In this document: positions 259 to 29,630 of the stretch, piece by piece | How the letters are laid out: every line of letters begins with the position of its first letter | How positions within the stretch are numbered: position 1 is the first letter of the stretch | DNA from: Psammoneis japonica | Taxonomy: Eukaryota | Assembly: GCA_008632985.1 (NCBI GenBank) | Contig: QPGO01000029.1 | Coordinates: 260,874 to 324,873 of the forward strand | Reading direction: 5' to 3' | DNA: 64,000 nucleotides | Program-made: the position numbers and the translations under genes | Notes under the pieces: model-generated | The model's input: the letters and a program-made list of their open reading frames with translations, nothing else | Told to the model about the DNA's origin: nothing | Databases searched by the model: none

Positions 259-267
259 CTCCCTCTC
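259..267 (-). other. Polypurine tract of Copia-1
   Basis: Minus strand GAGAGGGAG immediately precedes the 3' LTR. Confidence 0.75.
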
Positions 268-279
268 AACCGAGAGAGC

Positions 280-3200: not shown

Positions 3201-6200
3201 GGAACGGAACTGCGCGGAGAAGTGCTTGGACTCGACCAAAGTTCAAATGGCCAAAACGGGCGTGCATTTCGAGAAGAAGCTTTTGGCCTGCCGTGAGGTT
3301 TTGATTCTCCTCGTTAAGGATCTGAAGGTTCACTTGAGGAGCGGCAGATGCGCCCTTGGTCATCGACGCAACAGGCAAGTGGCTTGATGGATGATGTGGC
3401 ACGACCAACTTGCCTGTCCCGTCAACATGTAAACGGAAAGTGGTTTCATCGCCCTCACACTTCCCACGTACCCCCTTCTCTTCGTTGAAGAGGCGTTGAG
3501 GCGACAGCAGGCGCTGACGGGCTCCAGGGACGTAGCATGCCATGGTGTTCAGTTGGATGGTAGCCCCACTCGGCGTTGTGAACACCCACGCAACTGGACC
3601 GGTGCCCTGGATGGCAAGACCGTTGGCAATCCCATTGATCTGTAAGGGTTTCTTGGGAACAGTCACAGGCCCCGTAAAATCATCTTTGTCGGGGGCAACA
3701 GCTAACGTGGCACCAGCATCCATGACGACCGTGAGAGCCTCGTCCGACAGACCGATGAGTGCCTGCGGATCGGATGCAAGGAGGTTGGCTTGTGATTGTC
3801 CGGTGAGTAGTTGGATGGTGGAGGCACCACAGACGACTGGTCGAACACTTGCTTCCTCCAATGGTTCCACAGGATCTTGAAAATGGGCAGTGTCCACGAT
3901 GTGATGCGGCAGACAGAGCTCATCAAACCGGAAGAAATCCGGGCTGAAGTCCTCAAGAGCGTCAAAGAAATGCTTCTGGTCGTCGAGAGGTTCCAGTTCC
4001 TCACAGGTGTCAAAGAAGGCTGATTCGTCTATCGCATCAGACCGTTCAGCTACTTCTGGGCTCTCCCAGCAGGCCTTGAGACGAGTGCTCAGTGCGTGTG
4101 ACGGATGGCGCGCGACAAACTCGGTGAGCACTTGCGTGCCTTTGATCCTGTGATGTTCGAACAGTGACCCCGTATCCAACACTGTCCGGTCATCTGGCTC
4201 TTCCACAATGTGGCAGACTTGAGAGCCAGCGGTCGAAAAACGACTTGGTGCATTCGAGAATGGATGCTCGGGCTGTTGACCGGCGCAAACTGCTGACCAC
4301 ACCATCACTGCAACGGATGGGACCATCCAGGAGGCTGGAAACCCGTGCAAAGTTGGGAGTTTGCACTGGCGGCGTAGAGCTCGAGGGATGCATGGGATCG
4401 GAGCAAAGCAAAGATGCAGTGCCGTTTCCCAAAACATGGCGGCGAGCCAGAATGTGAATGGCTTGACTCGACCCAAGAGTGAGCGACGCGAAGTGGGCTC
4501 GTCTTCGACGTCCTCGTGACAATCATCCGCATCCAGGACCTCTGGATCGTAGAAATCAAAGCCACGATGCGTAACACACGGAGGCAAGTCGTGGCATGCG
4601 TCTTCAAAGTGTACGTCGTGTTCAAGGATGAGATCTAACTTGGTGTCGTCTGACAGCATGTCCGTCAAATGTGCGGGAGCATCAAAGAACTCATCTGGAT
4701 GCTTGACAGAGCACAGCTTCGAGGCCGGAAACAACTCAATAGCCGGTGGTTCGTTTTCAAAGGTAGAGAAAGCGTCGGAGCACTCGCAGAAGTCATCGGC
4801 GTCTTCGGGAGTGACAGTCTCAACCACGATGGGAGACACGACTGGATCCACGACTGAGGTGAGCACAGGTGGGCTCGTTTCGATGCAAACCACCTCAGCA
4901 CTAACGACTGCATCGCTCTCCCTCTCGGCCAAAGAAGCCGGAGTAACAACAATTGCAGCAGCAACAGGGGCGGAACAGAAATCCGGGTCGGCAACGGGAT
5001 CCATAGCCGCGCACCACATTCCCGTGAAAACCAACTCGTTGGGGTCGGATTCGTCTCCCTCTGGTGCCTTGGTGGTCTGAGCGGGCGGACCCATGGGCAC
5101 GCCACTGTCCGGATCAGCAATGGAAGACAAATTCCCGGCTGGGGTCTCCTTGGGAGGTTGCCTGCGGTCGTCGGCATGTTCCGCGGTAGAGTGCTTCTGG
5201 CAGATTCCAGGTTTGTCGGCACCCTTTGCCGTGCACGTGGCACACCACTTCCATTCCTTGCCATTCTTATCCTTCTTCGTTTCTCCGTCAAATTTAGTGC
5301 GCCAGGCAGCGATGGGTCGCCTCTTCTTCTTGGAAGGGTCGTCTGCAGGCGGCGGATTGGGAGGAGGATCGTCGCGCGGCGGTTTGGCGTTGCACTTCGG
5401 ACACGTCTTCTTGGTGCACCCCTCGAGACCGCAACCACAACAGTGCTTCGTCTTCCCAGGGTTGTCCGTAGTCGAAAGATTGCTCTCGGGTAGCTTGGCG
5501 ACTAATGCAGGCCATTCCCCGTCCTTCACGAGTTCGTTGTGTTGCTCTTGAATCCACGCAATGATGCCGACCAGTCCGAGCGTTTTGCAATCGCTGTCGG
5601 ACACGATGTCAGCAGGATTCTTGAGGCGGTGCTTGCGTTCCATGGCCTTGACGTCGTCGAGCTTGTTGCAGACTTGGCGATTGAAGCATTCAGAGGATGC
5701 AGAGGAGATCTTGTGGAGCAACTTGGAGCTTGTGTTCGCCGGAAGCGCGCAGTCGGTCTGCACAATTTTCACGATGCGAAGAGCTTCGGTGGCAAAGTCC
5801 GTGCAATCCTCGCCGGGATGGTCAACCAAACCAAGGTCTTCTGGCTGCTTCTTGGCCGTCTCAATGTCCGCCAGAGCGCTGGTGTTGCAAGTGTCGAGAG
5901 CCATCATGAATGGAACAGATCCAGGGCAGTCTTGGCAGTCCGAAAGATGGTTGAACTTGGTCTCGATTTTCTCGCGAAAGGTGTCAGTGATTCTTGAGTG
6001 AACGAGAAGTTGAGAGAGCCCGACATCGTCGAGCTCAATCTCGTTGTACTTGGCATCATCGGCAGCTGCTTTCCCAACCGTGTACTCGTTCACGAGATCG
6101 GTCACAGTAAACTCGTGAAGATGGTCGAAGACACATTGAACCTTGTCGTTGCTGTCCTTGACATGGCAGAACGTCTGCTGACCGTGGGCTTCTGCTAGAT

Positions 6201-6552
6201 CTCGAATGGTCTTGACGAAATGGTCCTTGTCAAGCTCGTTGATGGGACCGTCCGAAATCTCAAGTCGACCGTTGAACTTGGAAGTCATTGCGGAAGCTTG
6301 TTGATCGCGGAGAGATCGTTCTGTCGAGTCGAGAGCCTTGGGATGACGGCGCTGAGAGGCAAGTCGGCAGGTTCTGTCGTTGGATTGTTTGCAGTTGTTG
6401 TTGAGTTTGGAACCACCAATGTAAACCCCGTGGGTTGGGTGAATTCCACCACGCAACGGCTTGGTTGGAGCCGGAGGAGCGGTCGCCGCGGCGTCAGCGG
6501 CCATTGCATCGGCAAACGCCTTCGCCAGAACATCTTGATCGATGGCAGCCAT
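280..6552 (-). pseudogene. Copia gag-pol polyprotein, about 2090 codons, frame apparently open but with conserved Tyr replaced; natural stop lost
   Basis: Read manually (absent from the ORF track because the frame runs off the window edge without a stop). ATG at 6552 (MAAIDQDVLAKAF); gag WKWCATC..H....H; protease MDAGATLAV; integrase VSVDHFE and HQNGVAER; RT LKGLCGLKQSP and CVVHVDD (1357-1368); RNase H CVDSDFAG, EAECVALS, LADQFTKGL; ends KALVGW then CAA (280-282) where TAA is expected. Frame spot-checked at several points, not at every codon. Confidence 0.9.
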
Positions 6553-6714
6553 GACAGAGAGTGCAGCATGGGAGGTTCTTGTTAGAGTGAAGACGAGAGA
6601 AGCGAGAGAGACTCAGCTATTTCCCGGGTTTGCTTCAAAATCAAAAACCGAAAGCGTCCGTGACGATGACTCGGTCAGGAGCTCTCGTCAACGCGTGAAT
6701 TGGTCTCTGTGACC

Positions 6715-6949
6715 AGTCGAGATGCAGTCCTGCAGCTGAGTAGGATGGACAAGACCTCGGAGGTTGGCAGCAATATGAATAGCGACAGAGGTAAACAGAC
6801 GCTTGTTGAAAGTCGTTGTCTAGAAAATTATGACGAATGTCGTTGCTTCTGTTTGAATCGATTTTGTGATGAGCTAATTATTTCGAAGAGAAAATCTGAG
6901 TCTGGGTTGTAGTCGTGAGATGCGACCAGAATGACGTTGAGTCGTGACT
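6715..6949 (-). repeat. 5' LTR of Copia-1
   Basis: Direct repeat of 24-258; retains TA at most sites where the other LTR has TG or CA; followed on the minus strand by a possible primer-binding site (T)GGTCACAGAGACCA. Confidence 0.95.
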
Positions 6950-10245: not shown

Positions 10246-11199
10246 AACTGCATCCAAAAGAAAATGCGGAACAAATTTGTCGCGATGGTGTATGGACGAT
10301 GGTTCACGCCAGTCGCTGACAACGACTTAAGGCGTGGTAAAAGAGTTTGATCAGGCCGTATCATGTCTCCGTGTCCATGTGCCTGAGAATAAAATAATAA
10401 TTTTCTTGGCGCAAAGCGTTATTTTCATTCCAACAGTTTCAGTTGGCAATGAAGAAGCATCTGATGAACCACCCAATAATGACTCTGGAGTCCTTGTTCA
10501 AGAGACCCCAAACCTCTGCCCATGTGTTGGGCTTACATTAGAAGGGATAAATCCAAATGAGGCGGGGCGGGTTTCTCTGAGGCTTTCGCCCCGGATTGAA
10601 CCTCCGGTGTCTCGCCATACAAAGTTCCCAGTGCAGAGGCCAGCCTTCTAAGCTCCATTCGCATCTTGGTGCAGTGGTTCGTAAGGGGTGAACCACAGGG
10701 CCGTAGCCACCAAGAAGCATGCATTGTGTTCTGTGCAGATGATGAGCGGGAAAGCCCAGCTTCGCATGCAGTGAGAGACGAGGAATTGTTGTTCTACAGG
10801 TGTCCTTTTAAAGAGAAGAGATTTGAGCAAACCCTGATGCCATTGTGAAATCTGGGTGCTTGGTGAAAGGATTCCACTTCAATCTTCTTTTTTCTTGAAA
10901 GCTGAAACAAGCAGGGCAACCAGTGCACAGACAACAAATGTCACCATTTTTCTTTGTTGACAGTTTGCAGCATGTGCCATGGCTTCTTTGTTGCATGGCA
11001 TGGGTCATCTTCACATGTTGACTTTCATGGCAGCACAGCTGACCTCCATCAGACTCTCACAGTCAATGTCAGATCAGATGCTTGCTTGTCTTGCATCACC
11101 AATGACATGGATGAATTGCATTGCTCCCCTCTCTTGATCCACACGGATCAACAGACAGAGCCAAAATTGCAATCACATCAAGCCAACAACCAAAGCCAC

Positions 11200-12776
11200 G
11201 AATCTGCTGCCTCCATTGATGCCCTCATGATGCTCAACCCTGCTGGCCCCTCCTGAACCAAGCTTGCCACCAGCGCTCATTTCCTTGGAGGGATGCCCTG
11301 TCAGCTCCATTAAATTTGTGGCCAAACACCTTGCCACCAAAGCTGATGCATTTGTGCCCTCCCTTTGCCTCTTCTCATCCTGCTTGCTGACAAACAAACT
11401 CAAAGCTGTTTCTTCAGACATGTGCACTCATGTCCACATCCCAGCCACCTCCTTTTCTCTGACATCTTTTACAACCTCTCCTTCACCTCTGACAATCCTG
11501 CCCATGCTTGGTCATCTTTTCTTGACTGCATCTGTGCTTCCTTCTGACACTTCCTCCATCATCTGACCGACTGCCAATCTGACCTTCTCTTCCATGCTCT
11601 TGCTTTTGCCCAGAGGCCTGCCTTCCTCCCGCCATCCCTCCTCCCTTTGTCACCTCCCTTGCTCAATCCCTTCAACACTCATGCCTTGGTGTTGACTCAA
11701 CAGGCGACCCAACCATCAAACTCCATCCAGCTCATTCTTCCACCCACCTCCATCAAGTCACTTCCTGTGACCTTTGTGGTCTTCCGATGTCTGAATCACC
11801 TCTGTGCCATGCAAGTTGTTCAATTCCTTGTCAACAACCCATCCTTCCACCATGGCTTCAACTGCTTTCTTGTCTCCCACGCAAGCCTTGCCCTGCTTTC
11901 TTTCTCATGCTTGCAAGAATGCAACCACCTCTTCCCCTGCTCCCTTGCCATTGTCCCACTCCAACACAAACTGTGCCTTCCGTCCTTCCCTCTTTACACT
12001 TGCAGGTGCAGATTGCCCCTGTGGCCACAAGCTTGATGCCTGTGGTGACCATGCCTTCTCATGCTCTGGTGCCTGCAAACCCCTCCTCTCTAACTCAGTT
12101 GGAGACATGGTCTGGTCACTCTGCCATGCTCTTGGCCCCCTTGCTGGCCTCTGCTCCACCACCTCTGATGTGATCATTGTTGAAACCCTGGGCCTCCTTG
12201 TTCCTTCCCCACCAAATGCCATGCTGACATTGGAGTGCAGTTTCACACACACAATTCTGCTGCCATTGTTTTTTCTCTGTCCCTGCTCCCATGCCACCCA
12301 CCACTGTGTGCCAGGTTTGCCACCTCCCTCCAATGATCCACTTGCCATGGCACACCACAGCAGTGCTTGGAGCAAGTTTGTTGCTCAATCTGCCCCTTCC
12401 TCCTGTGGCCCTGAAATCATCCAGTGGCTTCACAGACTGTGGCAGCATCTTCCTTCTCCCCTTCACCTTTGGCCAATTCTCTCCCCACCCTCACAACCCC
12501 CCCCAGTCCTCTCCCCAAGATTTCAATGATCTTGATTGGCTCACATTGCCTGCCAATGCTCCCTGCTTGCCCTTCTGGCCTCCTTTCGTGTGCAGATGCT
12601 GCCTGGTCCCAGCTCTGCCCTGACTCCTTTGGCACTTTTTGCCACTCTCACTCCCCATCCAAGTGGGCCTCCCAAAACCTTGCTGTTGACAACATGCCAT
12701 CTGCCCTTTCCCCTCCCACCTGTCCTGCTTCCCAGAACAATCCAGTCACCTGCCACTGCTGCCTGTCTGACCTTCC
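11200..12776 (+). mobile_element. Degenerate CRE-like non-LTR retrotransposon fragment
   Basis: C-rich; residual peptides ADKQTQ and CPCGHKLDACGDHAFSC (zinc knuckle) are collinear with the element at 48524-50632. Confidence 0.65.
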
Positions 12777-13089
12777 TGTTGGAATGTTGAGATGAGAGAC
12801 CCAAATGTTGTGTGATGTGACCCAGACAATTTGAACAGGAAGGATGTGGATCCTGATGTGGTCCACCAATGTGACCATCTTTGATGAGATCACAACTGTC
12901 ACCACATTCTTTGCATGTGTTTTATTCTCACTCTTTGGAGTGAATCATTTGGTTTGCATGATCCTCAGTTGGTGTCAAGAGGCACCTGTCATTTTGGGAG
13001 TCACGCAGTTTGCATTTGTGCCAAGGCATGCCACAGAGCTGACACATGCTGCCAAGGCCAGTGTGATGAGTTGCTCAGGAGACCTCTGA
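12777..13089 (+). repeat. 5' LTR of Copia-3
   Basis: Begins TG; aligns with 19427-19733, differing mainly by CA/TG swaps. Confidence 0.8.
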
Positions 13090-16000
13090 AGATTTTTTTT
13101 GTTTGGAAGACATTGACTTGCTTGTTCAACATTCACTCCAAAGAGTCACAGCCCTGCATTTGGTGCTCATTTGCCTCAAGACTGCCACCCACACCAAGAC
13201 ATCAGAACACCTGCAAAATGAGTGGGAGGAGGTGGTGGATCAAGCTGTCAAGGCCAAGATGCATCATGGCAGATGTGGTGGAAGTCACAGGTCATCAAAT
13301 CAGAAGATGAAGACCAGTGTCAAGAAACACCTTCAGTCTGAGATGAATTTTCATCCTTTGTCACTGAACACAGCAATTCCTGAAATGCGACATTCAAGGA
13401 AGTCCTCAAGAAGATTGCTCCACACACACAGAAAAAGCATGATCAAGGGGCACATCCAGCAAGATCCATTGAAGACATGAAGCAGAAAGAGTTCTCAAGC
13501 AAGATGCTCACATGTGTGGGATCTGACATCATGCTGCCAGCAATTGATGACCCCAACTGCCATGAACAGCTCATGAAGAAAACCAACAAAGGCAAAGGTG
13601 TGGAAATGCAGCACAAGCAGGACTGCAACGATTGGTGTGAGAAGGTCAAGAAGTTCAAAGAGAACAAAGCTGCCACATTTGCAACAGACAAAGCAGAGAT
13701 TGAAAGGCAGCCCTGATTTCAAATCTGCAAGAGAGGATCCAGCTACATTGCTGAAACTGATGATGCTTGCCTTTGATTCTGTGGTGAGAGGTGGGCACCT
13801 GTTCCATGTGCTCATGAAGGCATGGAAGAAAATCCTTGATGGAGGCAGCAGGCAGCAAGACACCAACCATTGAACAACTGCCTGTCAAGATTCAAGAACC
13901 AGCAAGACTCCACTGGAGAAGCATTGGGAGACAAGTTGCTTGAGACGTGTTCCTTTCAAGCATGAGGGAACACAAAGATGCTGACAACATGAAGAAGAAA
14001 GAAATGAAGGAGCTTGCATTTGAGATGTGGACAACACACCTGTTTGTGGCAAACAGCAATGTGATCACCACTGCAAGAACCTGAAGATGAGCTTCATGAG
14101 AGACCACAGCCTGGACAAGGACACCTGTCCAAAGGCCCCAGACAAGGCAATGGATGTTGTGCCCGACCATCCAAAAGACAATGATCTGCACAAACAGTGG
14201 AAAGACGCTGCACGGAATGACTGCAACTAGAACAACAGGACCAAGAATGGGAGTGAAAGCACTGACTCAGAGGAACAGAAGGACCAGAGTCATGCTCAAC
14301 AGAGCAACCAGAGTGACAAGTTCATGAGTCACTGTTGTGGTGCAAAAGGCCACATGACCCCCAAATGTGGCCACAAGGGCACTGTCCTCCACAACAGGTG
14401 GTGCAAGAAGACTGGTGAGAAGCCAGAAAATGGGGTCCAGAGCCATGCACAGATGCAAGGTGGAAATGACAAAGACTCATCAGTGGAGAGTGACAGTTTG
14501 AGTGTCAACACCATGAGATCCAATGGATCAACCCAGCCCAGCTGCAGCAGAGGCTCTGCACAGCAAGGGTTGCAGTTGGACATCAAAAGACTGGAAGTGA
14601 GCACAAACCAAGCCAATGCAAACATCAATTCACAGGAGATTGTCCTCAAAAATGGTTTTGCCCTTGGCATGGCAGCCAGCCAGAGACCAGTGCACAATGT
14701 GTGACTGGCAAGGATTGAGATTGATCTGTCAACCAATGCAGGTGTGGATGCCCTGGACAAAGACTGCACAATGCCAGGGTGGGGAGACACAAAGCTTGGA
14801 TCAGATGGCACAACAGCAAATGCCTTTGTTTTAAAGGATGCAAAGAACAAGTGCCGCATGACTTGTGATGACAGAGTGGCAGACAAGTTCCAACCAAGAA
14901 GACTGGAAACAAAGTCATGGTGTTCAAGGTCAACAACATTGGACTGCACATGTTTGCCCCAAGTCAAGAATTCTTCAACTGCACTGAAGAGCTGCAAGCA
15001 CATGTGAGGAGCATGTGAGCATGCTGTCAAAGGATGAGAAGAAAACTGCCAAAAAGAAGTGCAAGGGCACCTCTGCAGTGAAAAGGGTTCCAAGCTGTTT
15101 TTATGATGGAATCAGGCAAAGAATCTGTCCAACATGCTGGAAGATGTGGACAGAATGGCGGACATGTGGGGGGCATGGACACATGCACTAAAAGGAAAGA
15201 CCAAATGTGTGCACCATTCCCACAAGCCCATGAGAGGAACAATGTCACAGCATTGCCACCTGAAAATTAAGAGAAGCAGAGAGACTGCATGATGCTCTGC
15301 ATTGATGTTGTGGAAGTGTGTGGAGTCAAGATGCCACACTTGACAGACAAGACTGTCAAGCACCATTCCAGCATGAAGCTCAAGTCCAAGAACCATGCCA
15401 ACACACACAAGGCATTGGATGTGATCCTGCAACAGTGCCACATGAGCACATTCAAGATCATTTTCATTGAGTGCAACCCAGCATTCAAGGACATGTTGGC
15501 AGCAGTTGCTGATGGCATGGACCTGGTGTTGATGTCAATGAATGCCAGTGACCATGTCCATGAAGTTAAGAGAAGCGTTCAGACTGTCAAAGAAAGAGCA
15601 AGCACTTGGGTCACTGCGCACCACCTGCCACACAAGACAACACCAAAGTTGACATGTGAGCAAGCCAAAATCAAGAACGCAGTGATGACAAATGTGCACC
15701 CACAAAAGGAGGGAATCTCAGACACACACAGTGCACACATGATTGCACAACAAAGACACCTCAGCTGTGACAAACATTTTGAATTCTCATTTAAAGAATT
15801 TGTCCCATCCCATGCCAAGCCCAGCCAATCAAACACAATGGATGCATGTGGTGTTGACAGCATCTGCATGTGACCATGCCATGATGTCCTGAAGGGCAGA
15901 CACTGTGCCATGAACTTGCACAAGAGCAAGCTGCTTAATTGCTGCAGGTTTGCCATGATCCCCCTGACTGACATGCACATTCAAGCAGTCAAAGAAATCA

Positions 16001-19000
16001 CCATTGCCAAGGGCATTGAAGAATTCAAGCACACAGGCAATTGCAGGGACAACTTGTGCAACAATGGCTGGATTGCAGCAGTGGACCACAATGAAAGCAG
16101 CAACAAAAGAAACAGTGCAAGCAATGACAAACACAACAAAAACAACATTGCCAACAAAAAAGACTGTGAAGAAGAAGAAGAAGAAGTGGGAGCTTCCAGT
16201 GACAAATGTGGAGAAGCTCAAGATGTGTTGGCAGACAAAAAGCAGAGCCCAGATCAGCATCATGAGGATGACAATGACATGACCACAATGACCAAGACAA
16301 AAAGCATGAAGAACAAGAAGAACACAAAGACACATCACAGGACAGAAACAAGCAAGTGGAACAATGTGACCTGAAACAGACCAGAAGCAGCAGATCCTGC
16401 ACAGTGGTGACATGCCACAAGAAACATGAGGCTGCACAGAGAGAACCAAGAGCGCAATTCACAGGAGTGGCAGCAGACACCAAAGAAGAAAAATGGAAAC
16501 AGTTCAAAATTGAATGCTGCCATCATTTGTGGACAAATGCAAGCCTGAATCCAAAGAACAACATGCACTGCAATGCAGAATTGGAGTGGTGATTGCACAC
16601 TTCATGTGTGAGATCAATGACCAACTCTAATTGGGAGAGGACATTTCCTCAGCCCACAGCAACACCTGCCACCTGAGTGCCTGCCGCAAAGGCATTCAAC
16701 CCAAGGAGGCATGAGGCCTCAGAGAAAAAAGTTGGTCAACTGTGCAAGCAAGTGTGCTTTGTGCCAATGCAAGCCAAAGACATGACTCTGATTGAAAGAA
16801 AAAGATCTGTGACAGCTTTGATGTTCCTTGCAGAGAAACAAGATGGTCGAGTCAGAGGACGAATGGTTTGCACCAGTGGAAAACCAACAAGAGAATGGTT
16901 GGACAAAGATGAGTCAGCCAGCCCAACAGAATCATTGGAAGGAATCATGATGACAGCTGTTGTTGATGCCAAAGAAGAGCAAGACACAATGAGCCCCAAC
17001 ATGCCAGACATGTTCATGCAAATGATTGATGCCAGACCCCAAGGAGGGCAAAGAACAGATTGTGATGAAGATTGCAGGAGTGTTGGTCAACATGCTGGTG
17101 AGCAGTGATCCCAACCCATGTGGGCCACATGTGTTCCCAGAGAAGGAAAGAGAGAGTCCTCTGCACAAGAGACCATTGGAGCCATCTGTGGCATGTTGGT
17201 TGCAGCTCTGCTGTGGCATGAGCAACTCCACAAAGACCTGGAGAAAATTGGGTTTAAGTTCAACCCATGCAATCTGTGCATTGCCAATCGCACAGTCAAT
17301 GCAGCACACTGTCTGTTTCCACATGGATGACCTGCTGTCAAGCCACAAGAACTGCAAGGTTGATGACAAATTCCTGAGTTGGCTGAACAAGATGTGTGGG
17401 AGCCATGGCAAGGTCATTGCTGCTCAAGGGAAGAAGCACAACTGCCCAGGATGACCCCAGATTTTACCAAAAAGGCAAGGTGAAGGTCAACATGACCAAC
17501 TGTGCAAAGAAGATGGCAGACGAGTTTCCAGAGAAGCTTGAGAGCACGGATGCTGCCATGACACCAGCTGGGGAAAACTTGTTTGACACTGGTGGCACTA
17601 GATTGCCAGCCAAGAAAGCACATGTGTTCCATGAGTGGGTGGCCAAAGGGCTGTTTGTTTCCAGGAGAGGCCACATGGATGTGCGCTTCACTGCAATGCA
17701 TCATGTGTGCACGTGAGGGAACCTGCCAACAAGGGTTGGGGGAAGTCAGTCCATTGTGTCAAGTGTCTGAACTGGACACAAAACCAAGTTGCCACATTGA
17801 GCGCAGATCACCTCTGAGTTGTGAAGTGGTGCATGGAGACATTGCAGTGCACCCTGACTTCAAGAGCCACGCTGGAGGAGACCAATTTGCAATGGAGTGA
17901 TGCAGGCTGTGTCAAAGTGGCAGAAACTCAACACTGAAGCCGCACAGAGGCTGAACCAGTTGGAGTTGACAACGTGATAACTGTGATCTCATGGAGCAAG
18001 TTGTTCATAGAACACCAAGGTCATCCAATCAACAACAACATCCTGCACCAGGATGACAAGAGCACCATTCCACTGGAGACCAATGGGCACAGAAGTGCAG
18101 GCAAATGATCAAGAGGAGCACTCAACATTCAACATTTCTTTGTTGCCAATCAGATCAAGAAGGGCAACTTCAGAGTTCAATGACAGAAAAGATGCTTGCA
18201 GACTTGATGACCAAGCCATCACAGGGCAAGAAGTTCCACAAATTCAAGGGAGCCATTGTGGGCTGCTGAAGAGAAGGCAAGCATGAAGGACACACAAGCT
18301 GTTTGTGACATCAAACAAGAACTCTGATGCATGTGGCTGAAATTGGAGCAAGTCAGCACCCAAGAACCCAATTGTCTCACATGAGGTGTCCAGCATGAAG
18401 CAGTCTGCTGACCCTGGAGTTTGAGAAGGATGGAAAGATTGTCTGGACCTGCGCCCATGGCATGACAGACAAGTGTGCAAAAGAGCTTGAAGACAAGTGG
18501 CCCAAGCAGCAGGCAAAAGGGGTTTGATGCAATGTGCAATGTGTGCAAGGCCTGGAACAGATGGCCAGGTGAAGTTCATCAATGTGTGTCAACTGCTGCA
18601 CCAATGACCTCCATGTTCAAAAAGGGAAGTGTGAATTCACACAAGATGATGGAACAAGCAAAGGCAGCACACATGACCAAGGAGTGTCAGCACATTGTCA
18701 GGACAGGCACAACAATCCAAGGAACAAAATGTTGCAGGAGTGGCAACAATGTGGATTGTTTCAATGGATGCAATGAAGAAATGACAGTGAGGTCAAGAGG
18801 TGATGAAGGTCATGTTGTTGCCCTTGACAATGAAGACATTGGTCAACTGTGTGGGATCAGTCAACAGTGAGTTGTTCCACCTGCAGCTGTGGGATGACAC
18901 CAGGTGTGGTGCATGTGGGCCACTTGTGGAATGTGTTCCCAACCATCACAACAACATGACACATTGGTGGTTTGGTTTGGCAACAGATGACAGTGGAGTT

Positions 19001-19426
19001 GTCTGTGATGCCTTGAAGTTGGCATGCTTTTTTCAACAAGAAGCTGTGTTGAAGCAAAGCTGGTCAGAAGCGGGGCTGTTGTGATGTGGAGTTTTGCCTG
19101 TTGCTGCTCTGGAGAGTTGACAAATGGGTGGCAGAAGGAATTGACAAGATGGATGCAAAGGGGTTGTACAGCAAAGAAGCATGAGAGAAACTCTGTCTTG
19201 CCTGTGCAAAGAGTTTTGTCAACCAGGTGCATGGCATTGAAGATGAGTTTGATGTGATGCCACACTTCAAGGGCTGCAGATTGGGTCAAAGAACATTCAT
19301 GATGTGTGAGTTGCCATGTGATGACAACATTGCCATGCCAGATGAGTTGGGTGGGACTGCATTGAAGAATCTCTGATCACTGTTGTTGGGGAGGAAGATG
19401 GGTCATCAATGCAAGCAGCAGGAGTG

Positions 19427-19733
19427 TGCGGGAATGTTGAGATGAGAGACCCAGATGTCACACAATGTGACCCAGATGATTTGAGTGAGAAGGATGTGGA
19501 TCCTGACCTGGTCAATGGACATGACTTTCTTCAATGAGATCATGACCATCACCACATTCTTTGCACATGTTTTGTTCTCACTCTTTGGAGCAAATTGTTT
19601 GGCTTGCACAATTGTCAGTGTCAAGAGGCACCTGTTGTTTTGGCAGTTGCGCAGTTTGCATTGATGCCAAGGCACACCATGGCTGACACATGCCACCAAG
19701 GTGAGTGAAGTCAGTTGCTCAGGAGACCTCACA
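19427..19733 (+). repeat. 3' LTR of Copia-3
   Basis: TG...CA termini; aligns with 12777-13089. Confidence 0.8.
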
Positions 19734-19899
19734 GGATGCCCCCTTTGGGAGACATTGACTTCTGGCTCAACACTTGTCTTTCCACCCCTCCCCTCCATCT
19801 GATCAGCATCCATCTGGTGCCCCTTTTTTCTCCAGTCCTGCTTCTCCTGTGGTTTGGGTGTTGCCACACCATGAGCAGGGTGGGAAATTGCAGTGGCGG

Positions 19900-22800
19900 T
19901 CTGTCCAACAGCTTCTGGCTGTTGCCTGAATTTGGGTTTCCAAAGGGGAGCTGGTTTTCAAATGACCTTCAACATCGGCACATGTGCAGCACTCATTCTG
20001 CAGGAGGACTCTGCTTTGTGTGACCATTTGCAATGGTTCGGCAAGGACACCTGCACAAAATTTTTTCATTGCAAAACATGTGTGCAAAATGACAAATTTT
20101 CTCTTTTGTCAGGATTTGGCAGTTGTGGCTGGGGTGGCACATTGATTTGCTTTTGTTTTCCAAACCCGGCGATCTGGTTGGATGACATGGGTCACGGTTT
20201 TTTTCAGTCATTTTAGTGCTGATTTTCCCTGGTCTTGTGTGGATGATGTCATGCAATGGACAGGAACAACACATTGATTTGTTTGTGTCTGTGGTGCAAA
20301 TGTCAGATTCAATGGGTTTTTTGTCTTTTGCATCCTTCAGCGATGGGCGAGACGATGATTTCCTCAAATTTTCATCGTTTCTTTGTTTTCTTGATCTCAA
20401 AAAAGGCATTTCCTTTTTTCGTGTTCAATGTTGCAGTCAGCTGACATTTGCAGGAAGGTCATTTTCATTGCTTGACAAGGCTGGTCTCTCTTGTTTGGCA
20501 GGTTCTGTGTGACTCAAGGTCGCCAGGAAGAAGTCCTTGGGTGCTTCTGCATTGATCTTGTTTTGGTGAGCACAGTGCATCACTTTTTTGTTTTGCAGTG
20601 GCTTGTTGCAGTTTTGTTGGCTTGTTGTTGTCACAGCTTCCACAACACAAAGAGAGCTCTCTGAGCTCATGCTGAACACTTCATTTGACAATGCAGAGAA
20701 AGCCAGCACAACTTCATTCATGCAAATGAGCAGCATGACTGCATTTGTGACAATGATGAGATGAGTGTTCTGCAACTGGAAGATCAAGTTGCAGTTTTAG
20801 AGCACATCATCATTTGGATGTTGACAATCAATGTGATCTGGACTCAATGGGGCAGGATTGTTCAAGTCATTTTTGTCATTTGAAATGGATCAACCGGCGC
20901 AGATTCTAAAGATTGTTGAGACAGGTTGCAATGACAACAACAAAAATGCACAAACCAGAGTCATTTTGTGGGTTTTCACATTTGCACAACTGGTCCAAGA
21001 TGGATTTTTGTTTTTCCAATGGCTGCCATTTGACATGAGTCAACCACTCCTCCACCTTTTTTGTTGCAACTCTTGTCATCCAAGAATCAGGAGGACACAA
21101 TCTTTCAAAATCATTGTGCAGACGGATGTTGCCATGATGCTGTTTCAAAGAGAGTTGCACCCAATGACATGTGGCTCAGGGTCATTGGATTGGTCAATGT
21201 TGCAGCACATCACACTGTGATTCTCTGCCAAAATCAATGACCACAAAAGCTTCTTTAGGAATCTTGCATGGCACCACAACTGCCAACTCAAGTGCACTGA
21301 TGTTGTTCTCATCCACATGCACAAGTGTGCTGGTTTGGGAGGTCCAAATTTTTGTGTGGGACTGCAGGAGGGTCTTTTCACAAAGACACCATTGTGAATG
21401 TGATGGCTGTCTTGACTTGCATTCCTTCCTTCTCACACAAGGATTGATGCTCTTGGCACGCACAAGATCACTTCTTCATGTTCACTCATCTTTCAAGGTG
21501 CTGGCTTGAACATTTTTGAATTTGAAATTAAAGCAGGGAAAACCAATGGTGACATCTTGGATTTGATCTTGGGCGACATTCCCAAACACTGTGCAGAACA
21601 AGAAAGAAAGACTCAAAAGTCTCAACAAACCACCCCCCTGACAATTGTCATTTCAATGCCTCCATCCAACTGGATTTGAGACATTCTTGGATGCACCACT
21701 TCATTCTCCTGGTTTGTGACATCCAAGCAAAGCCTGTTCTTGCAGGTTGCTGACTCAGCAAAACCCACACCATGTCTCCAATTGCCACAAACTTTGTCTG
21801 GTTTTGAAAATGTGTGCAGAAATTTTAGCACGGCTTGCAGCATCATGAAATCACAAGACGCAAGGAACTTGTTTGAAGATTGTGAACATCTTTGTTTCCT
21901 GCCACCAACATTGACTCTGAAATGGCCAGAGTGAACAAACTCATTTCTCCTTTCTGTGGCAATGGCTCAGTCAAAACCAATGCTTTGCAAGGGCAATGGA
22001 CACCATGCATCTCATTTTCTCCTTTTGCAGCTGATCTTGCATTTTTGGCAATTCGTTCATGTTTGTCTTTGTCCTCTGCAACCACATCAACTCAGTTGAC
22101 AATGTTTGGTGCTTTCCTTCATTTTTTGAATGGCACTCCTTTTGCACTCATCAATTCTTTCCACAATGGAATGTTTTCTTTGCACACTTTGGTGTGTCCT
22201 TTTTGTTCTTTGATGCGGAATGACACATGGTCTTGTTTCGCAACTTGTGCTGTCTTTTTTCTTCTTCTTCTGCATTTCCAATTTTGCTTGACAGGGTGAT
22301 CTCCTCAAACTCCATGCTTTGTTTTCATGGTTGCAGATTCCATCCACAAACTGCAAGTGCTTTGACATTGTGCATTGGATGTGCAATTTGGAATGTGCGA
22401 TGCATTGAAAACGTGGCACTCCACACAATTTTTGGCCATTGTCTGTTGTGCTTGCAATTGGACAATGCAACAATGTGCCAGATTTCTCACAGCTTTGTGA
22501 CATGACCATGTTGTTTGCCATGAATTTTGTTGCTAAAATTGTGTGGTGTGGTGACACATCTTGCTTTTGTGTCATTTTGACATGACAAACATGCGAGTGA
22601 TCACCAGCACGCTGTTTTAGAGGATGTCTCACTGAAAAATTTGTGTGACATGTCAATGTGAACAAAACTCAAATCACACACATTTGACATTGTCTCCTCA
22701 AAATCTTGAGTCCTGTGTTCATTTTAACACAAGAGTCAAGTGATTGTGTCTTTTCAACTCTTTTCCACCAAAAATTGACACAGTCTTCTTGTGTTGAGAA

Positions 22801-25800
22801 TGTTGATTGAGAGCAGGTGTGAGCATCTTTCTCACATTGAGCTTTCCTCTTTGTTGTCACTTACATTGTTGCTCACATGTTGTTGAATGGCACCGGTGTG
22901 ACAATGGCTGAAGATTGACAATGACCGCAACATCAACAAATCTGACACCTGCGTCAAATCAGAGTCAACTGCTCCTTTTGAGCCCATTGTTGGCATGACA
23001 AGGAAGGAATCTTCAATTCAAACCCATCACTCAATTCATCGTCATCTGTTCTCAATTGCATCATCATCAAAGAAGGATCTAAAATGGGAGAAGCAATCCA
23101 TTTGGCAGAAAAAAAGACAAAGTGCATCCCGCTGATGGGGTCTCAGCGCTGACTGTGAATTGAAGTTGGGTCACATTTAAGAGGCAGATGAGCAGAGTGG
23201 CTGTGATTCACTTTTGGAATTCCCTTCTTGTTTGGATGGAGTTGTGCAAAAAAAAGAAGCAAACATGAAGAGCCAGCATGCTTGGACACTGTCATGTTGG
23301 AAGTGGAGCAGAGACACTGCGCTGCTTCTGAGAATTGGTTCAATCACAAGTGAAGCACATTTCCAGCAATGGCATTGACACTCACGTCATTTGACAAGTG
23401 GTTTTCACAGGTTTGTTGTTCATTGGCTTCATTCACGTGTGCATGGAGGAACTGAAGATGCTCATCCAGCTTGCTCTCATCAAGCTTTTTCAAAGTTTTT
23501 GGCGGATTGTCAGAAGGAACTGTCTTTTCTTTGTCTTGATCATCTCCCAAATTAATTTCTGGGCTCACATGTCCACAGTCAAGAACCTCAACAGGACACA
23601 GGCAAGTGCTGGGATGGAAGCACATGGCAGCTTAGTTTGGTTTTTCCTTCAACCAATTCTCAGTGAATCCTGTTCCATGAGTTGTCATGATCTTGACAAT
23701 GTCATCAACCAGAACAAACTGATTCAGGGAGTGTGTTTCTCCAGGCTGGGCACGCCAATTCAATTTGTTCATGTGACATTTGTTGTCCATGCAACCTTTG
23801 CTCATCTCAGCATTTAGAGTCATGGCAGACTGTTGTAAAATGCAACAATGTTTTGTTGGTTCATGATGCACTTGCATCAATTGAGAACATTGACACATTG
23901 TGACACTCTTCTCCAAAACAGCTGCTAAAACTGTCAACCAAAAATCTTCACCAATGTCCTGATTGGCAAAGATGAGTGGACATTTGCGCCCCCAATGCTT
24001 GCGGCTCTTCTCTTCCATGTCTGTGTTGCACTGCATGACATTGTTTGACAGATCTTTTCAACAACAACCGCTGTCCACAACGTTGAGTTCAACCAAGTCA
24101 TTTGCACAATTTTTTTTGGGTTTTGCACTGCTGCACTTGCTTGGGACCCTGGCTGCAAACACCATCACTGTCTTTTGCAAGACCAGCAGTGCATGGCCAA
24201 AACCCATTGTTTCTGGGATGTGCCCTGTTGTCTGCATGACCACAATTGCAACATTGACACATTCTCAGCAGACAGCTCACCTTTTTGGTCTGCAGGTCCC
24301 ATGACACACAAACCAGCTGCATTCTCTTGTGTCCTTGATGGCCTCTTGAGTTTTGTTTTTCTTGGGCAAAAGAAACATTGGCAGAGAAGAAGCACTTTTT
24401 TGTTCATTGGAAGATGAGCTCCTTTTTGCTCAACTTTAATTCCTTCCCACTCATTCTTGATTTACAAGCATTGCCATTGTTTTCTTGAGCAATCCTGGGT
24501 TTTGCAAACAAAAACATCAAAGAAAATGGCAACAATTTTGTTTGCGATTGTGGTGGCTGGGAATGAACAATTGCACATTGCAGCTCAGAAATTGAGCAGA
24601 AACCCAGAAATGTGACATTGCAGTTTTTAACACACATGTGTGGGTGTTGTTAAGATGACCACATTTTGCAACAGTGCAAAAGTGATTGTGATTCTGTCAT
24701 TTAATTGAGTTTTTAACTGCCACACATGTCATTTTAACCAACAACCAGTTTGGTTCAATCAACTTGCAGTGCAGTGCAGATTTTCTCCTTGGACATTGCT
24801 TTGAGACAAGTGCAACCTGTTTCTGCACACAACTCAAATTGAAACATCAAACTTCACATTTCAATTGAAAACTCCAATGACTGAAATGTCAGCTCCATGT
24901 GAAATGTCATTTGTGAGTGTCAAAATCATGGAGTCCTTGAGGAATGTCTCACGTGCATTGACAAAATTTGATGATCCCTTGCAATGGATTGTCTTTTGTC
25001 TTCAAAGGACTTTTCTTTCAGTTGAGCCCGGTTGCAGACAACACAAACTCAGACAACAAAAACTCACTTGGCAAAGATCGCACATTGAGCTGGTGCAATT
25101 TTCCCACTTTTCAGTTCAAGGACAAGCTTTGGTTTGCTTTTCAGAGTGACAAAGTGTTGCAACTGTTGCAGAAGCCATCTTTTTGCTGCCCAGACCTTTC
25201 ATTTGACAGAAACCCTGCCAGCTTTGGCTGGACTTGTCAAAGCTGTGGCAAACATGTTGCGCATGAGCTCCAATCTGAGTTTTTCCTTGCTTTTTGGATT
25301 TGCATTCTTTGCTTTGGAAACTTCTTGGATTTCATGGCAAAACTGCCTTTTCAAAGGTCATCAGATTCTTTCATGAGAGCGAGCTTGCATGCCAAGGTTT
25401 GGAAGGTGTTGCAATGATTGGAGCCACTTCACCCACAAAATTTGGGTGAGTTCTGGCATTGCATTCAGTGTGTTGGCAAGTTTTTGTTGTCTTTTGGGCT
25501 TGATGTCAATGCTTTTTCTTTGGTCACACTTGTGCCACTTTGAATTTTGATGTGACATCTGTGGTGCAACAACTGCAAATGCTGGGATGCAAACCTCTCT
25601 GATTTGCTGATGACATTTCAACCCTGCTGAATTGCCCGCCAACGCTGCATCTTGACAAAATGATGTGGTGATCTCTCATCCTCCTTGGGATTCAAACAGA
25701 CAATCAGCTTGTGCGCTTTGCACAAATGATGGTGAATTTGGAATCGGACGTCTGAACTTTCTTTGATTTCCTTTGACTGACTTGCCGCCATTTCACCCAA

Positions 25801-28700
25801 ACATGAAAACATTTTTTCTTCCTTGAGCATGAGTGTCCAGCATGGTTCTTGAGCAGTGCCACTCAAGATGGCCTTTTTCTTCACATTCATTGTCACATCT
25901 TCTGTCCAACCCAAGTTCTGTCTGCACTCTTCTCCCATTTTCAATTTGAGTTTGTCGGCAACAAAGCCCATGACAACATCATCTTCATTTGTCATCAACA
26001 CAGGATCTTTGACAACCAACTTAAAAAAACAAGCATGATGAGCTGTGCAATTGTGTTGTTGATCAACCACTTGTGCCAAAAACCAATGATGACATTTGAG
26101 AATGAGATGTCGCCAGTGTTTCTTGCTTGTGAAGCTCTCCAACTCTTGTTGCATCATGTGAATTGCAATGGTCACATTTGGACTTGAACTTGGTTGCTGC
26201 ATGAAAACACCTCAAATGTGCCACATTTTGGTGACTTCAAAGAAGCCAAATGCAACCAAATGTGTGCACTGTTGCCAATGCAACCATCACATTGCAGCAC
26301 AATCACTGCTCAACAATGAGTTGTTGTCGCCATTGCCACTCTTGTCTTCCAAATGTGGCTGAAACATTTCCTTGCCCTTTTCAATCAGACCATCCACTTC
26401 TGCAACTTTCTCTTGCTCCTCCTTGGTCGCAGATCCCACACTTTCTTCACAACTGGGAATTTTGCCATCACTCTTGCTTGAACTGTCCTCTTCATCCTCT
26501 TCCTCATCAACATGAGTTTTGGAAGTTGACACTCAGTGGTTTCAGTTGTGTGTCTTTTTTTTCTTGCAACCACTTTCATCGTCATCTTCCTCTGTTGGAC
26601 CAACTCCACTGGTGGCTGCATTTGCAAAACAAAAAAAGCACAACACAACAAGTGCCAACAAACAAACATGCACTCCACAATTTCCAAATTAAAGTGAGTG
26701 GACTTGCACTCCAAAAATGCTTGCATCCACTTGTGCGTGCACAACTTCTGCACTTGGCAGATTCTGCCACTTCATCACTGATGGGTTTGTCACCAACTCC
26801 AGCTGTGGCCTGGAGGAATTTCCAATGTCGCCAAATTGCAGCCATGACTGACAAGAATTGCACTCATGACCACTCTCTTCACTGTGTCTTGAGGCATCAT
26901 AACTGGCGCATTGAACCGCATTTGCACCGGACTCAACTTAAAATCACTTCCTCTAACTTGATTGCTGTCCCACACCCTGGCCTTCTTTGAACTTCACTTT
27001 TCATCTTCAAGCCTTTGTTGCTTGGTGCAATGCTTTTGCCTTGGGATGTGACTCCACAAAGTGCAATTTAAAAGTTTTGCAACAGCCATGTGTGAGCTGC
27101 TTCTGTGAGACTTCAAATGTTTTCTGAGTTTTGTCATCTTGCTTTCCATGTCCCCAAATGACTCAGAGATCATGATTTCAGTGCATCGTTGCAACCAACA
27201 AAAATTTAGAAAGTGACCCAAAGCCATGCAAAAAACATGAAACTCTCCTTTCTTCCTTGATGTCCTTTTGATTGTAAACAACAAAAAGAACAACTTAGAA
27301 AATGGCCAATTTTGCCATCTCTAATGTTTGACAAAAAACAGCTGAGTGACTCACCCAAAAGTGTTCGCTCCCTTTGGCACACCTGTCCATTGTTCTTCCA
27401 ATTTTGGAAAGTTCTGGCAATGTCCTTTGGAGTCACCATCAAAAAGCTTTGTGCCAATGAGCTTGCAAAAACAATGGGCCAGTTGCTGCATCTCTGGCCT
27501 CTCAAATTCATTCTTGCACAAGCAAGCAACGGCGGAACAACAACCAGATTACAAAGACACACAGATTGTCAAAATTCTTGAACCCAATTTTCACACTCAC
27601 CTCACAGTGAACAAATGAACTCTTTTCAAAGTGCAGCGGGTTGTTGCTGCCCTCAAAACCTTCTCAGCTGCTTTGACAACTCCTTTCTCAACATCTTTGA
27701 CTCCGTCTTTCCTCTCATGGCAGCTTGCAAGCATTTGTCAAATTTAGCAACATTTTCCATTGACACGCCAATGAAGCAGCTGTTGTCATCATTGGACAAT
27801 TGTTTGTTTGACAACTTTCCCAAATTTTCCACATCATCTGGGAACTTAGATGAAAACTCCAACAACTCTTGTTCAATTTCTGGAGTTGCAAGCAACTCAT
27901 CAAAACGTTCATTCAACTTGTTCAAACAAGCCACTCTTTCAGCCTGAGCCTCTCCTGACTCAGGTCCAGTCATTCTTGCATTCTTCTTCTCCTTCTTTCC
28001 TGCCTTCAAATCACTTTCCAAATCTTTCTCATTGAGCCCTTTCTCTTCATCTGATGTGACATCATCCTTTCCCTCAGCTTGACATGTGGTTGCATCTCTG
28101 GGCACCCCAAACAAATTTGATGTTCCAAACTTCTTTCCAACAAACCAGCCATGAAGATGACAATGTGCCCTGGATCCACTGACATGGGAGTGGCTGCAAT
28201 CTTGATTTCTCTGTTTCAGGATGATTGCTGGCCACAGGTGCATCCTGCATCTTCTTGTTTTTCTCCCCCTCCTTCAAACCATCCTCTTCTTGACTTTGAC
28301 CTTCATCTCCTCCTTGTTTGCATCATCTTCAACAGGAGCCACTGATGATGACTTGGCATTTTGCTTGTCCATGACATTTTGTTGTCCCATTGTGTGCTCT
28401 CAACTGAGTGCAACAAGCACCTGCACCGATGCTGTGCTTTCTGAAAAATGGTGCTGCAGCGAACAAATGACAAGAACCACCACTGCACCTGCACGCTGGC
28501 GCAGCGCAGTGGTCTGTTCTCATGTGACCAAACTGATCTTGTTAAAAGTTCCAAATGATCAGTTTCTTTTGTTGACATTCTCATCTTTGTGCTCCAACTG
28601 TCATTGCTCAACCCCAGCTGCTCCACAACAGAACATTGTTTGCCGTTCACCACATGAACACTTCAATGTTTTTCTGCAGCAAAGCAAAGAACATCTTGGA
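19900..28700 (-). pseudogene. Degenerate minus-strand coding relics of an unidentified large element
   Basis: Fragmented charged, protein-like frames (27653-28243, 26287-26532, 23344-23625) and weak Ulp1-like protease remnants near 20900-21330; saturated TA/CG loss prevents identification. Confidence 0.35.
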
Positions 28701-29630
28701 TGACTCTTTTTCTTTTTGAGTGAAACAGCAGATGCAAAATGATGCCATTAAATTTTGTCTTTGCAAACCAAACATCACACACAAATGACCGTTGAAAAAT
28801 GACGACGACCGCCCCTCCTCCCGAAGTGCAATTTTCCTTCATGTGCTTGTTGCTCTCACCCCACACATGTGCTGCACTGTCAAATGATGTGAGCCTGAAG
28901 CTGTGAACCCTTTCAGTTTTCAGAAAAAGGCCAAACCACAGCATGCAGCACAAAAAACATGCAGAATTCCATGGCAACACTTTGCCGTGTTGCAAATCAA
29001 AATCATGTGGTGAAAGCACAGTGAAAAGCATGAGGGGTGGAGAATGTCCACATGAGCAATGCAAGCAGTTTAATGTCACACAACTGTTGCTTGACACATG
29101 CAAAGGTCATGTGTCTCAAAACTGTCACCAGAGCAGAGATGTCAAATCAAAAATTTTGGGCGGCCCTTGTGTCACCATGGCAAAGTGCGGTGAAACGCTC
29201 GCCAAATTGCCACACAAATTGCTGGCACAATTGGCTGGAGATGCTTTGTGAGGCTCTAAATGACTGTCAAAGCAGATTCCCTTGGCATGAGATCATTGTC
29301 AAACAGGACCAGAAATGGGTTGTCTCTTTCCTTCATGCTTTTGCCGTGGTTTCCATTTTTTAACCACACGGTGAAGTGCGCACGTAATTTTGTGCCAAGC
29401 GCTGCAGCATGCTGTTGTTTTGTGGCAAGGGATTGTGCACTAAAGACCAAAGTCTGGGAATGCAGCAAATGGAAGATGGCTAGACTTGCAGTGCATTTTC
29501 CACATGAAAAAATGTCCAGGTTCTTGTCCACCGTCATGTGGAATTCTGAGTCACGAACAGTGATTCGTGGGCAACTGCAGTCTGAAATCTGTCCTTTTGA
29601 AGACGAAACAACACGGCAAAGCACGGGGCA

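Follow-up and report, generated by a model that had tools for sequence, protein, structure and literature searches.

Reciprocal CA/TG swaps between the terminal repeats of a degraded Copia element and a probable two-part transition decay at CG and TA

The 64,000-nucleotide stretch of Psammoneis japonica DNA analyzed here (the window; contig QPGO01000029.1, positions 260,874 to 324,873) carries a degraded Copia element, referred to as Copia-3, whose two long terminal repeats (LTRs) face each other at many places with a CA in one copy and a TG in the other. An earlier note, made from the sequence alone, had proposed that each such pair descends from an ancestral TA or CG that was hit independently in each repeat, on one strand or the other. 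The locus raises the question of which dinucleotides were the targets, when they were changed, and what kind of process changed them. Our analysis makes it likely that the swaps are the visible part of a transposon-confined, two-part transition decay of the dead element at CG and at TA.

Reciprocal doublets in the Copia-3 terminal repeats

A repeat search of the window returned direct repeats at 12781-13093 and 19431-19737, with 76-80% identity. The LTR limits were set from the termini common to both copies, TGTTGA...TCAACA, and the true end of the 3′ LTR lies at 19772, about 40 nucleotides (nt) beyond the end coordinate of 19733 given before. Copia-3 has the two direct long terminal repeats with TG...CA termini that are expected of a Ty1/copia element.

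12785..13131, plus strand: 5′ LTR of Copia-3, a degraded Copia element; 347 nt, TGTTGA...TCAACA, with 35 CA, 49 TG, 1 CG and 1 TA
19435..19772, plus strand: 3′ LTR of Copia-3; 338 nt, TGTTGA...TCAACA, with 40 CA, 43 TG, 1 CG and 0 TA
12809..13051, plus strand: the 18 CA/TG swap doublets of Copia-3 in the transition-tolerant alignment

An ordinary global alignment of the two LTRs (338 columns and 9 gap columns) contained 72 mismatches, made up of 54 transitions and 18 transversions, and 16 strict CA/TG doublet swaps. Transition-tolerant scoring shifts two small gaps and hence gives 18 swaps, with 73 mismatches (60 transitions) and 9 gap columns. The first bases of these 18 doublets, in 5′ LTR coordinates, are 12809, 12811, 12813, 12827, 12836, 12870, 12882, 12893 and 12897 in the first half and 12916, 12941, 12946, 12959, 12970, 12990, 13002, 13029 and 13050 in the second. 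The previous count of about 18 is therefore reproduced, and the three swaps quoted with it as examples were all found in the alignment. When the test for doublet excess named in that note was run with 10,000 shuffles of the alignment columns, the shuffled alignments gave 1.07 swaps on average and never more than 6. Adjacent mismatch pairs numbered 37, versus 15.2 ± 3.1 (maximum, 27) after shuffling. The excess of CA/TG swaps is real and far above chance. A single LTR site was caught directly as TA in one copy and TG in the other.

Depletion of CG and TA, and its direction and timing

For the window as a whole, the observed-to-expected ratio (o/e) was 0.61 for CG, 0.25 for TA, 1.48 for CA and 1.49 for TG. 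In the depleted 1-kb bins (11001-31000, 36001-37000 and 49001-58000), o/e was 0.02-0.61 for CG and 0.00-0.11 for TA, and CA and TG stood at about 1.4-2.5; the gene regions of the window showed CG o/e of about 0.9-1.15 and TA o/e of 0.4-0.9. Within transposon blocks, CG o/e was 0.02-0.27, versus about 1 in genes, and TA o/e in the old blocks was 0.00-0.09. The edges of the depleted blocks towards genes are sharp, within about 100-200 bp. These data showed that the loss of CG and TA is confined to transposon blocks, two of which were delimited by composition.

10900..31297, no strand assigned: transposon block almost without CG and TA, which includes Copia-3
49200..58000, no strand assigned: second block almost without CG and TA

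Over its 6988 nt, Copia-3 contains 879 CA, 791 TG, 29 CG and 17 TA, where base counts predict about 478, 374, 389 and 460, respectively. Its surplus of CA plus TG (about 818) matches the summed deficits of CG and TA (about 803) and not the CG deficit alone, so both losses are needed. With so few CG and TA left, the element is saturated, just as had been expected of a process that goes to completion. At block margins (37200-37700 and 48400-49300), we observed 0-2 TA per 100 bp, yet 1-15 CG per 100 bp; TA loss there either extends further than CG loss or acts earlier.

The direction of change was read from columns conserved among homologous proteins, tallied by pairwise BLAST. For Copia-3, 150 homologs of a reverse transcriptase (RT) relic in its interior were used, giving 227 conserved codons.

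13132..19434, plus strand: internal region of Copia-3; 6.3 kb, heavily decayed, 73 stops in one frame
16677..17327, plus strand: reverse transcriptase relic; 217 residues, 1820 proteins at E<=1e-3, best 6.3e-39

None of the 12 conserved Tyr codons (TAY) of Copia-3 was kept, 7 having become Cys and 3 His, and 4 of the 12 conserved Arg codons were kept (3 AGA and 1 CGA), the others reading Gln (5), His (2) or TGA (1). If the flanking base is taken into account, TA>TG, TA>CA, CG>CA or CG>TG explains 37 of the 83 changed conserved codons and leaves 46 unexplained. That TA and CG were both ancestral targets thus stands for the interior of Copia-3; for the swap sites in its LTRs, it is unlikely that all of them were ancestrally CG.

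Two younger Copia elements in the window, A and B, represent intermediate stages.

1..6949, minus strand: Copia element A; 2204-amino-acid (aa) open frame at 1-6612, LTRs at 25-258 and 6716-6949, 96% identical
31298..35855, minus strand: Copia element B; 1368-aa frame at 31521-35627, LTRs at 31298-31580 and 35573-35855, 93% identical

TA o/e is 0.15-0.30 in element A and 0.23 in the coding region of element B, at CG o/e of 0.87-1.18 and 0.95, respectively; about 70-80% of TA is gone while CG is still intact. The conserved columns of A (673) retained 5 of 30 Tyr (15 Cys and 5 His) and 39 of 44 Arg, and other residues were mostly kept at about 90%. Those of B (31524-35627; 738 columns) retained 12 of 36 Tyr (13 Cys and 8 His) and all 54 Arg. 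In element A, changed codons were preceded by T in 7 of 12 Ile>Val, 4 of 4 Met>Val and 4 of 5 Thr>Ala cases, and unchanged Ile, Met and Thr codons in 0 of 12, 0 of 8 and 1 of 16. Since these changes follow T-ending codons, A-to-G in element A goes with a T just before it, also where the two bases belong to different codons. Judged from the protein comparisons, the change of TA to TG or CA is a real, polarized mutation process that is far advanced in A and B with CG intact. The 2204-aa frame of element A runs through its own 3′ LTR (25-258), despite the replacement of 25 of the 30 conserved Tyr.

The timing of the changes can be read from the three LTR pairs, whose mismatches fall mostly in columns holding CA, TG, CG or TA.

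LTR pair A (25-258/6716-6949), 96% identity: 10 of 10 mismatches in CA/TG/CG/TA columns, 0 of 124 other columns changed; differing doublets, 3 CA/TA, 3 TA/TG, 1 CG/TG, 1 CA/CG and 1 CA/TG
LTR pair B (31298-31580/35573-35855), 93% identity: 19 of 21 mismatches in CA/TG/CG/TA columns, 2 of 133 other columns changed; differing doublets, 3 CA/TA, 1 TA/TG, 3 CG/TG, 2 CA/CG and 4 CA/TG
LTR pair Copia-3, 79% identity: 61 of 72 mismatches in CA/TG/CG/TA columns, 9 of 144 other columns changed, 2 more mismatches beside gaps; differing doublets in the ordinary alignment, 16 CA/TG and 1 TA/TG

Both LTRs of one element are copied from a single template, and the changes that separate them are therefore postintegration. 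The intermediate states in pairs A and B, where 29 of the 31 differences lie within the four dinucleotides, bear out the idea that each LTR was hit independently after integration. At least 9 TA were once present in the LTRs of A and at least 7 in those of B. The LTRs of B have 16 shared and 5 differing CG, from which 0.15 CG-derived swaps are expected; since 4 were seen, TA-derived swaps exist.

From the Tyr codons, the hazard of TA loss was 1.8 per site in A and 1.1 in B, and the background change was <0.012 (A) and 0.0075 (B) per site per copy. TA loss is thus >100-fold over background and roughly 10-fold above the loss of CG from the LTRs of B, which was 0.12 per copy. The notion of one process acting on TA or CG was right in that both are hit, but the two losses are separable processes with different rates. 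Between the LTRs of Copia-3, the raw distance is 0.213 (Jukes-Cantor, 0.251) overall and 0.062 (0.065) outside the four dinucleotides. LTR dating does overestimate the age, as had been suspected, with a 3.4-fold inflation of the raw distance and a 3.9-fold inflation after Jukes-Cantor correction.

The two LTRs of element A differ in their decay. At a distance of 190 bp from the host gene frame at 7139, 9 TA remain in its 5′ LTR (6716-6949), versus 3 in its 3′ LTR (25-258). In each of the 8 one-sided differences, it is the 3′ LTR that carries the mutation (p = 0.008). This asymmetry fits a process that is bounded by a chromatin domain and seems to stop short of the gene-proximal LTR. In element B, we noticed 5 one-sided CG losses among 21 LTR CG, versus 54 of 54 conserved Arg codons intact, and CG decay may, on the example of this element, start in the LTRs.

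Neighboring bases and the weighing of explanations

The fate of a TA depends on its neighbors. Among 100 TA sites surviving in 30.2 kb of the old blocks, 73 are YTAR (Y, pyrimidine; R, purine), 25 are mixed and 2 are RTAY, with TTAA accounting for 35 and CTAA/TTAG for 33. In gene regions (n = 763), the corresponding numbers are 159, 428 and 176 (chi-square, 124.8; p = 8e-28), and elements A and B are intermediate. Surviving CG is poor in TCGA (8 of 280 versus 98 of 1052) and rich in GCGC and CCGC. When TAY codons were pooled over A, B and Copia-3 and sorted by preceding base, the Cys:His outcome was 15:1 after C, 7:4 after T, 5:5 after A and 7:6 after G, that is, 22:5 after a pyrimidine (p = 0.0015) versus 12:11 after a purine (Fisher p = 0.036). 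The LTR alignments of A and B, as we read them, contain 7 one-sided sites that are informative, and 6 of them follow the same rule. Within this window, adenines are hit preferentially if the next base is a pyrimidine, and this preference explains the apparent coding-strand bias without transcription. The supposed strand symmetry of the process holds on average (the Copia-3 swaps are oriented 12:6, p = 0.24, and the element has 879 CA versus 791 TG), but at TA sites the strand that is struck depends on the flanking bases.

Three further candidates were rejected. A pure transcription-strand bias is ruled out by the balanced 12:11 class, GC-biased gene conversion by the other A:T sites, which are unchanged, and selection against TA by the fact that the elements are dead.

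A single explanation would join the swaps, the saturation, the direction of both changes, their postintegration timing, the restriction to transposons and the neighbor dependence established above. Copia-3 would be an old, dead Ty1/copia element whose integrated DNA underwent transition mutagenesis of a kind restricted to transposon blocks. One part would be C-to-T at CpG, giving TG or CA, most likely through deamination of 5-methylcytosine, as we infer from published work on diatom methylation. The other would be a much faster A-to-G at TpA (T-to-C on the other strand), again giving TG or CA and dependent on neighbors, with RTAY lost first and YTAR last. As CG and TA are self-complementary, either strand could be struck, and each LTR would be struck independently; hits on opposite strands in the two LTRs would leave a reciprocal CA/TG swap, and hits on the same strand nothing visible. 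The product, CA/TG, would not be a target, and the end state, almost without CG or TA, would be stable.

Spontaneous damage would hardly be fast enough, or selective enough for context, to produce the TA part. Our preferred, though tentative, candidate for the enzyme is a deaminase that would be brought to silenced chromatin and act on adenine in DNA; its product, inosine, would pair with C and yield A-to-G. A preference for a 5′ T resembles that of TadA/ADAT and ADAR. It is conceivable, though we would not yet bet on it, that this diatom lineage possesses an undescribed, defense-like mutator that edits DNA adenine at TpA, from A to G and in a neighbor-dependent manner, in silenced transposons; such a mutator would occur in some lineages only, strong TA loss being seen in 3 of 80 environmental relatives. 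A mutagenic modified thymine at RTA, e.g., one with an oxidized methyl group, is a speculative alternative cause.

Several observations weigh against the two-part decay as a full account of Copia-3. No target-site duplication was found when 5 bp were compared on either side (TGGAA before the 5′ LTR, CTTGT after the 3′ LTR); decay, slightly misplaced limits (a few bases), or a recombination of two copies may account for this, and the two LTRs could belong to a recombinant of two insertions. In the transition-tolerant alignment, 13 of the 73 LTR mismatches are transversions, and divergence outside the dinucleotide columns is 6%; part of the LTR divergence is for these reasons ordinary. With 11-16 CG shared between their two copies, the LTRs of A and B are rich in CG, and the Copia-3 LTR swaps may be mostly CG-derived. 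The conserved Arg codons of Copia-3 changed to Gln or His 7 times versus once to Cys, Trp or stop, a hint that strand or context may bias the CG part as well. Finally, in an environmental relative of element B (L013), sites preceded by C or T gave 11 His to 5 Cys, the opposite trend, and the strand rule may accordingly be lineage-specific or incomplete.

Relatives of A and B show how unusual the TA loss is. The Tyr>Cys/His pattern of element A was present in none of its 117 tallied database homologs (3 at most), and that of element B in 1 of 120, a protein with 7 Cys and 5 His in 36 columns (P0491). Among 80 environmental (metagenome) relatives of B, the median TA o/e, read from the sorted list, is about 0.63, versus 0.23 in B; the low TA is thus derived and not native to the family. 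Strong TA loss was seen in 3 of the 80: L013 (o/e 0.01), L080 (0.24) and L006 (0.31). L013 has 3 TA in 2766 nt at a CG o/e of 0.44 and keeps 1 of 29 conserved Tyr (13 His, 7 Cys and 7 Phe); its His excess and its Tyr>Phe (TA>TT) changes are unlike the window elements. L006 keeps 16 of 26 conserved Tyr (6 His and 2 Cys), and L080, without the Tyr>Cys/His replacement, keeps 12 of 15 (1 His). CpG loss alone is exemplified by L042 (CG o/e 0.07, TA 0.61) and L037 (0.15 and 0.69); these two, L029, L010, L068 and others have CG o/e of 0.07-0.27 with ordinary TA of 0.47-0.69. CpG decay without TA decay is the common state in this Copia lineage, and TA decay is rare and separable.

The sequence of Copia-3 was compared with a read run, X1, which contains 77% of the sampled 31-letter words of 12500-20000. 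The 8 longest X1 contig pieces among the matches listed are each 0-12 letters off Copia-3 over 0.4-1.5 kb. Although X1 may be the assembly's own sample, miscalling of modified bases in Copia-3 is unlikely, because X1 contigs of that kind need accurate reads. The Copia-3 family is multicopy, with 624 X1 contigs aligning, and the differences among the matches listed are mostly transitions. No contig of two further runs, X2 and X3, aligned. Other family copies have CG where the window has TG at 16632 (in at least 5 contigs) and at 18284 (in at least 3). At 12684-12685, one X1 contig with a single-copy-like depth of 52.6 has CA versus TG in the window. This swap relative to a near-identical allele or duplicate hints that the process was still active after the split.

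The simplest rival holds that methyl-CpG decay alone produced all LTR swaps from CG and treats the LTRs' lack of TA as native or irrelevant. CpG-only decay is indeed frequent in relatives (L042 and L037), the LTRs of A and B are CG-rich and include CGCGCG runs that could explain the triple swap at 12809-12814, and other copies show CG at the window TG sites 16632 and 18284. This reading nonetheless fails to account for the Copia-3 Tyr codons (0 of 12 kept, 10 of them now Cys or His), for the LTR site that reads TA versus TG, for the 4 swaps of element B where 0.15 CG-derived ones are expected, for the TA once held by the LTRs of A and B (at least 9 and 7), and for a CA plus TG surplus that equals the sum of both deficits rather than the CG deficit. 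We regard it as quite improbable. Somewhat less so, though still unlikely, is a repair by-product, in which G:T mismatches at methylated CpG are resolved by long-patch, error-prone synthesis back to CG, eroding nearby TA first. It would suit the confinement of TA loss to blocks that later lose CG, the precedence of TA over CG loss in A and B, and the striking of both strands. The signature of a polymerase-eta-like enzyme is A-to-G at TA or WA (W, A or T), as in immunoglobulin hypermutation, a motif that includes AA; there are, however, no AA>AG or other non-TA changes here (0 of 124 and 2 of 133 nondinucleotide LTR columns changed), and most relatives with strong CpG decay are without TA decay.

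Two other accounts deserve very little credence. Editing of RNA or cDNA before integration, of the ADAR or APOBEC type and during retrotransposition, would agree with the coding-strand bias of the Tyr changes (Cys:His, 15:5 in A, 13:8 in B and 7:3 in Copia-3) and with the Arg outcomes of Copia-3 (7 Gln or His versus 1 stop). A single template for both LTRs, however, cannot yield reciprocal swaps or one-sided losses of TA and CG, and the Tyr bias is gone after a purine (12:11), which means that it follows context and not purely strand. An equally remote reading is a sequencing or assembly artifact, with modified bases in transposons being miscalled, namely, 5-methylcytosine at CG and, at TA, a T or A carrying some modification. 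The pattern is limited to regions that are expected to be modified, and strand-specific miscalls could mimic random CA/TG; against this, the X1 contigs reproduce Copia-3 (77% of words; 0-12 differences in the 8 longest pieces among the matches listed), and TA loss recurs in contigs of other projects (L013, L006 and L080) and in protein P0491. The two-part transition decay remains our favored explanation for Copia-3.

Identity of Copia-3, its surroundings and comparison with known systems

By tblastn, homology of Copia-3 to Copia polyproteins spans 14081-18305 on the plus strand, over three frames. Its RT relic was searched against a library of 1.84 billion proteins; 5 of 6 scanned matches reached the Pfam cut-off for RVT_2, and the sixth, P0123, fell just under it (30.5 versus 31.6 bits). 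RVT_2 lies in the C-terminal half of the long homologs, which also align at 15001-16500, upstream of the RT; no integrase model was matched. A Pfam scan of the Copia-3 interior itself, as 18 stop-free pieces and three read-through frames, gave no RVT_2 and no transposon domain. Since the homologs of the RT relic carry RVT_2 and the tblastn homology spans 14081-18305, the label of a Copia-type LTR retrotransposon appears justified, via homologs rather than by a direct domain match. Self-BLAST of Copia-3 against the window returned its own LTR pair only, and neither element A nor element B matched Copia-3 by tblastn. The USP39-like gene at 7139-8539 places the host among the pennate diatoms: its identity is 66-69% with proteins of Pseudo-nitzschia, Nitzschia, Cylindrotheca and Fragilariopsis and 64% with that of Phaeodactylum.

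Other parts of the depleted blocks were also surveyed. The two Copia protein sets had no match in 19773-31297 and 49200-57900, and a purine/pyrimidine-collapsed repeat search of the window found the three known LTR pairs only. These approximately 20 kb of CG- and TA-free sequence probably consist of older or different transposons. An RT-like frame with a YIDD motif at 48277-49215 is probably the relic of a non-LTR element. The starts of the depleted blocks (11001-13000 and 48001-51000) are pyrimidine-rich, low-complexity stretches with a strong GC skew of -0.26 to -0.49 and with long proline/serine-rich pseudo-frames in several reading frames.

If the TA mutagenesis is real and enzymatic, it would represent a new genome defense or mutational hazard outside fungi and a possible natural source of DNA adenine-editing activity. 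A mutator of this type, if it exists, would be an adenine counterpart of the fungal repeat-induced point mutation (RIP), erasing Tyr codons, TAA and TAG stops and TATA-like motifs. Because TAA and TAG are lost, giant open frames persist in dead elements, such as that of 2204 aa in A, and gene callers will report them as intact proteins. Homology-based repeat finders will underdetect old copies, Copia-3 itself being without any Pfam match, and LTR-divergence dating is inflated in genomes of this kind. Indices designed for fungal RIP would miss the signal, since TA falls here where RIP raises it.

In the full-text literature searched, with subscription journals and supplements outside its reach, no report of transposon hypermutation from TpA to TpG or CpA appeared, in diatoms or elsewhere. 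The passages found by term in Maumus et al. 2009 (PMC2806351) include none on mutation bias, deamination or LTR divergence, and those found in PMC9998398, PMC4504042 and PMC12994199 contain nothing on TpA hypermutation of transposons.

Among known systems, RIP of ascomycete fungi shares with the window dense transitions that are confined to repeats, affect both strands, kill the element and skew its dinucleotides. RIP is C-to-T mainly at CpA and raises TpA; it is triggered by sequence duplication, is premeiotic and needs a RID-type methyltransferase. The window runs in the opposite direction, from TA to CA or TG: TpA is destroyed, adenine is one of the two bases that mutate, and CpA/TpG, rather than being the substrate, is what results.

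Methyl-CpG decay, as in vertebrates, plants and diatoms, resembles the CG part in its change of CG to TG or CA, in its restriction to transposons and in its presence in many relatives. Enrichment of this change in repeats was found here in the CG depletion of the blocks, in the Arg changes of Copia-3, and in the CG/TG and CG/CA states of the LTRs. The loss of TA, about 10 times faster than that of CG in A and B, where CG is intact, is unlike it. For Phaeodactylum tricornutum, CG methylation of transposons is reported to be maintained by DNMT5a (PMC9998398), and H3K9me2, H3K9me3 and H3K27me3 each mark about 40% of its annotated transposons, mostly Copia-type (PMC4504042). By analogy, the CG part is most likely 5-methylcytosine deamination in this genome too, and CpG decay itself is an ordinary, already known process.

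Hypermutation by APOBEC3 or ADAR offers another likeness, namely, that retroelements are inactivated by deaminase-type transitions that depend on neighboring bases. ADAR and TadA have preferences similar to the A-to-G change of an adenine with U or T on its 5′ side. APOBEC3 and ADAR edit a single strand, of cDNA or RNA, before integration takes place, whereas the LTRs studied here diverged after integration and on both strands; instead of one-strand changes common to both LTRs, we found reciprocal swaps and one-sided losses, with CA as well as TG as outcomes. With respect to the CoDi-type Ty1/copia elements of diatoms, A, B and, as its RT homology suggests, Copia-3 belong to diatom Copia lineages, and the homologs of element A include a protein of Fragilaria crotonensis.

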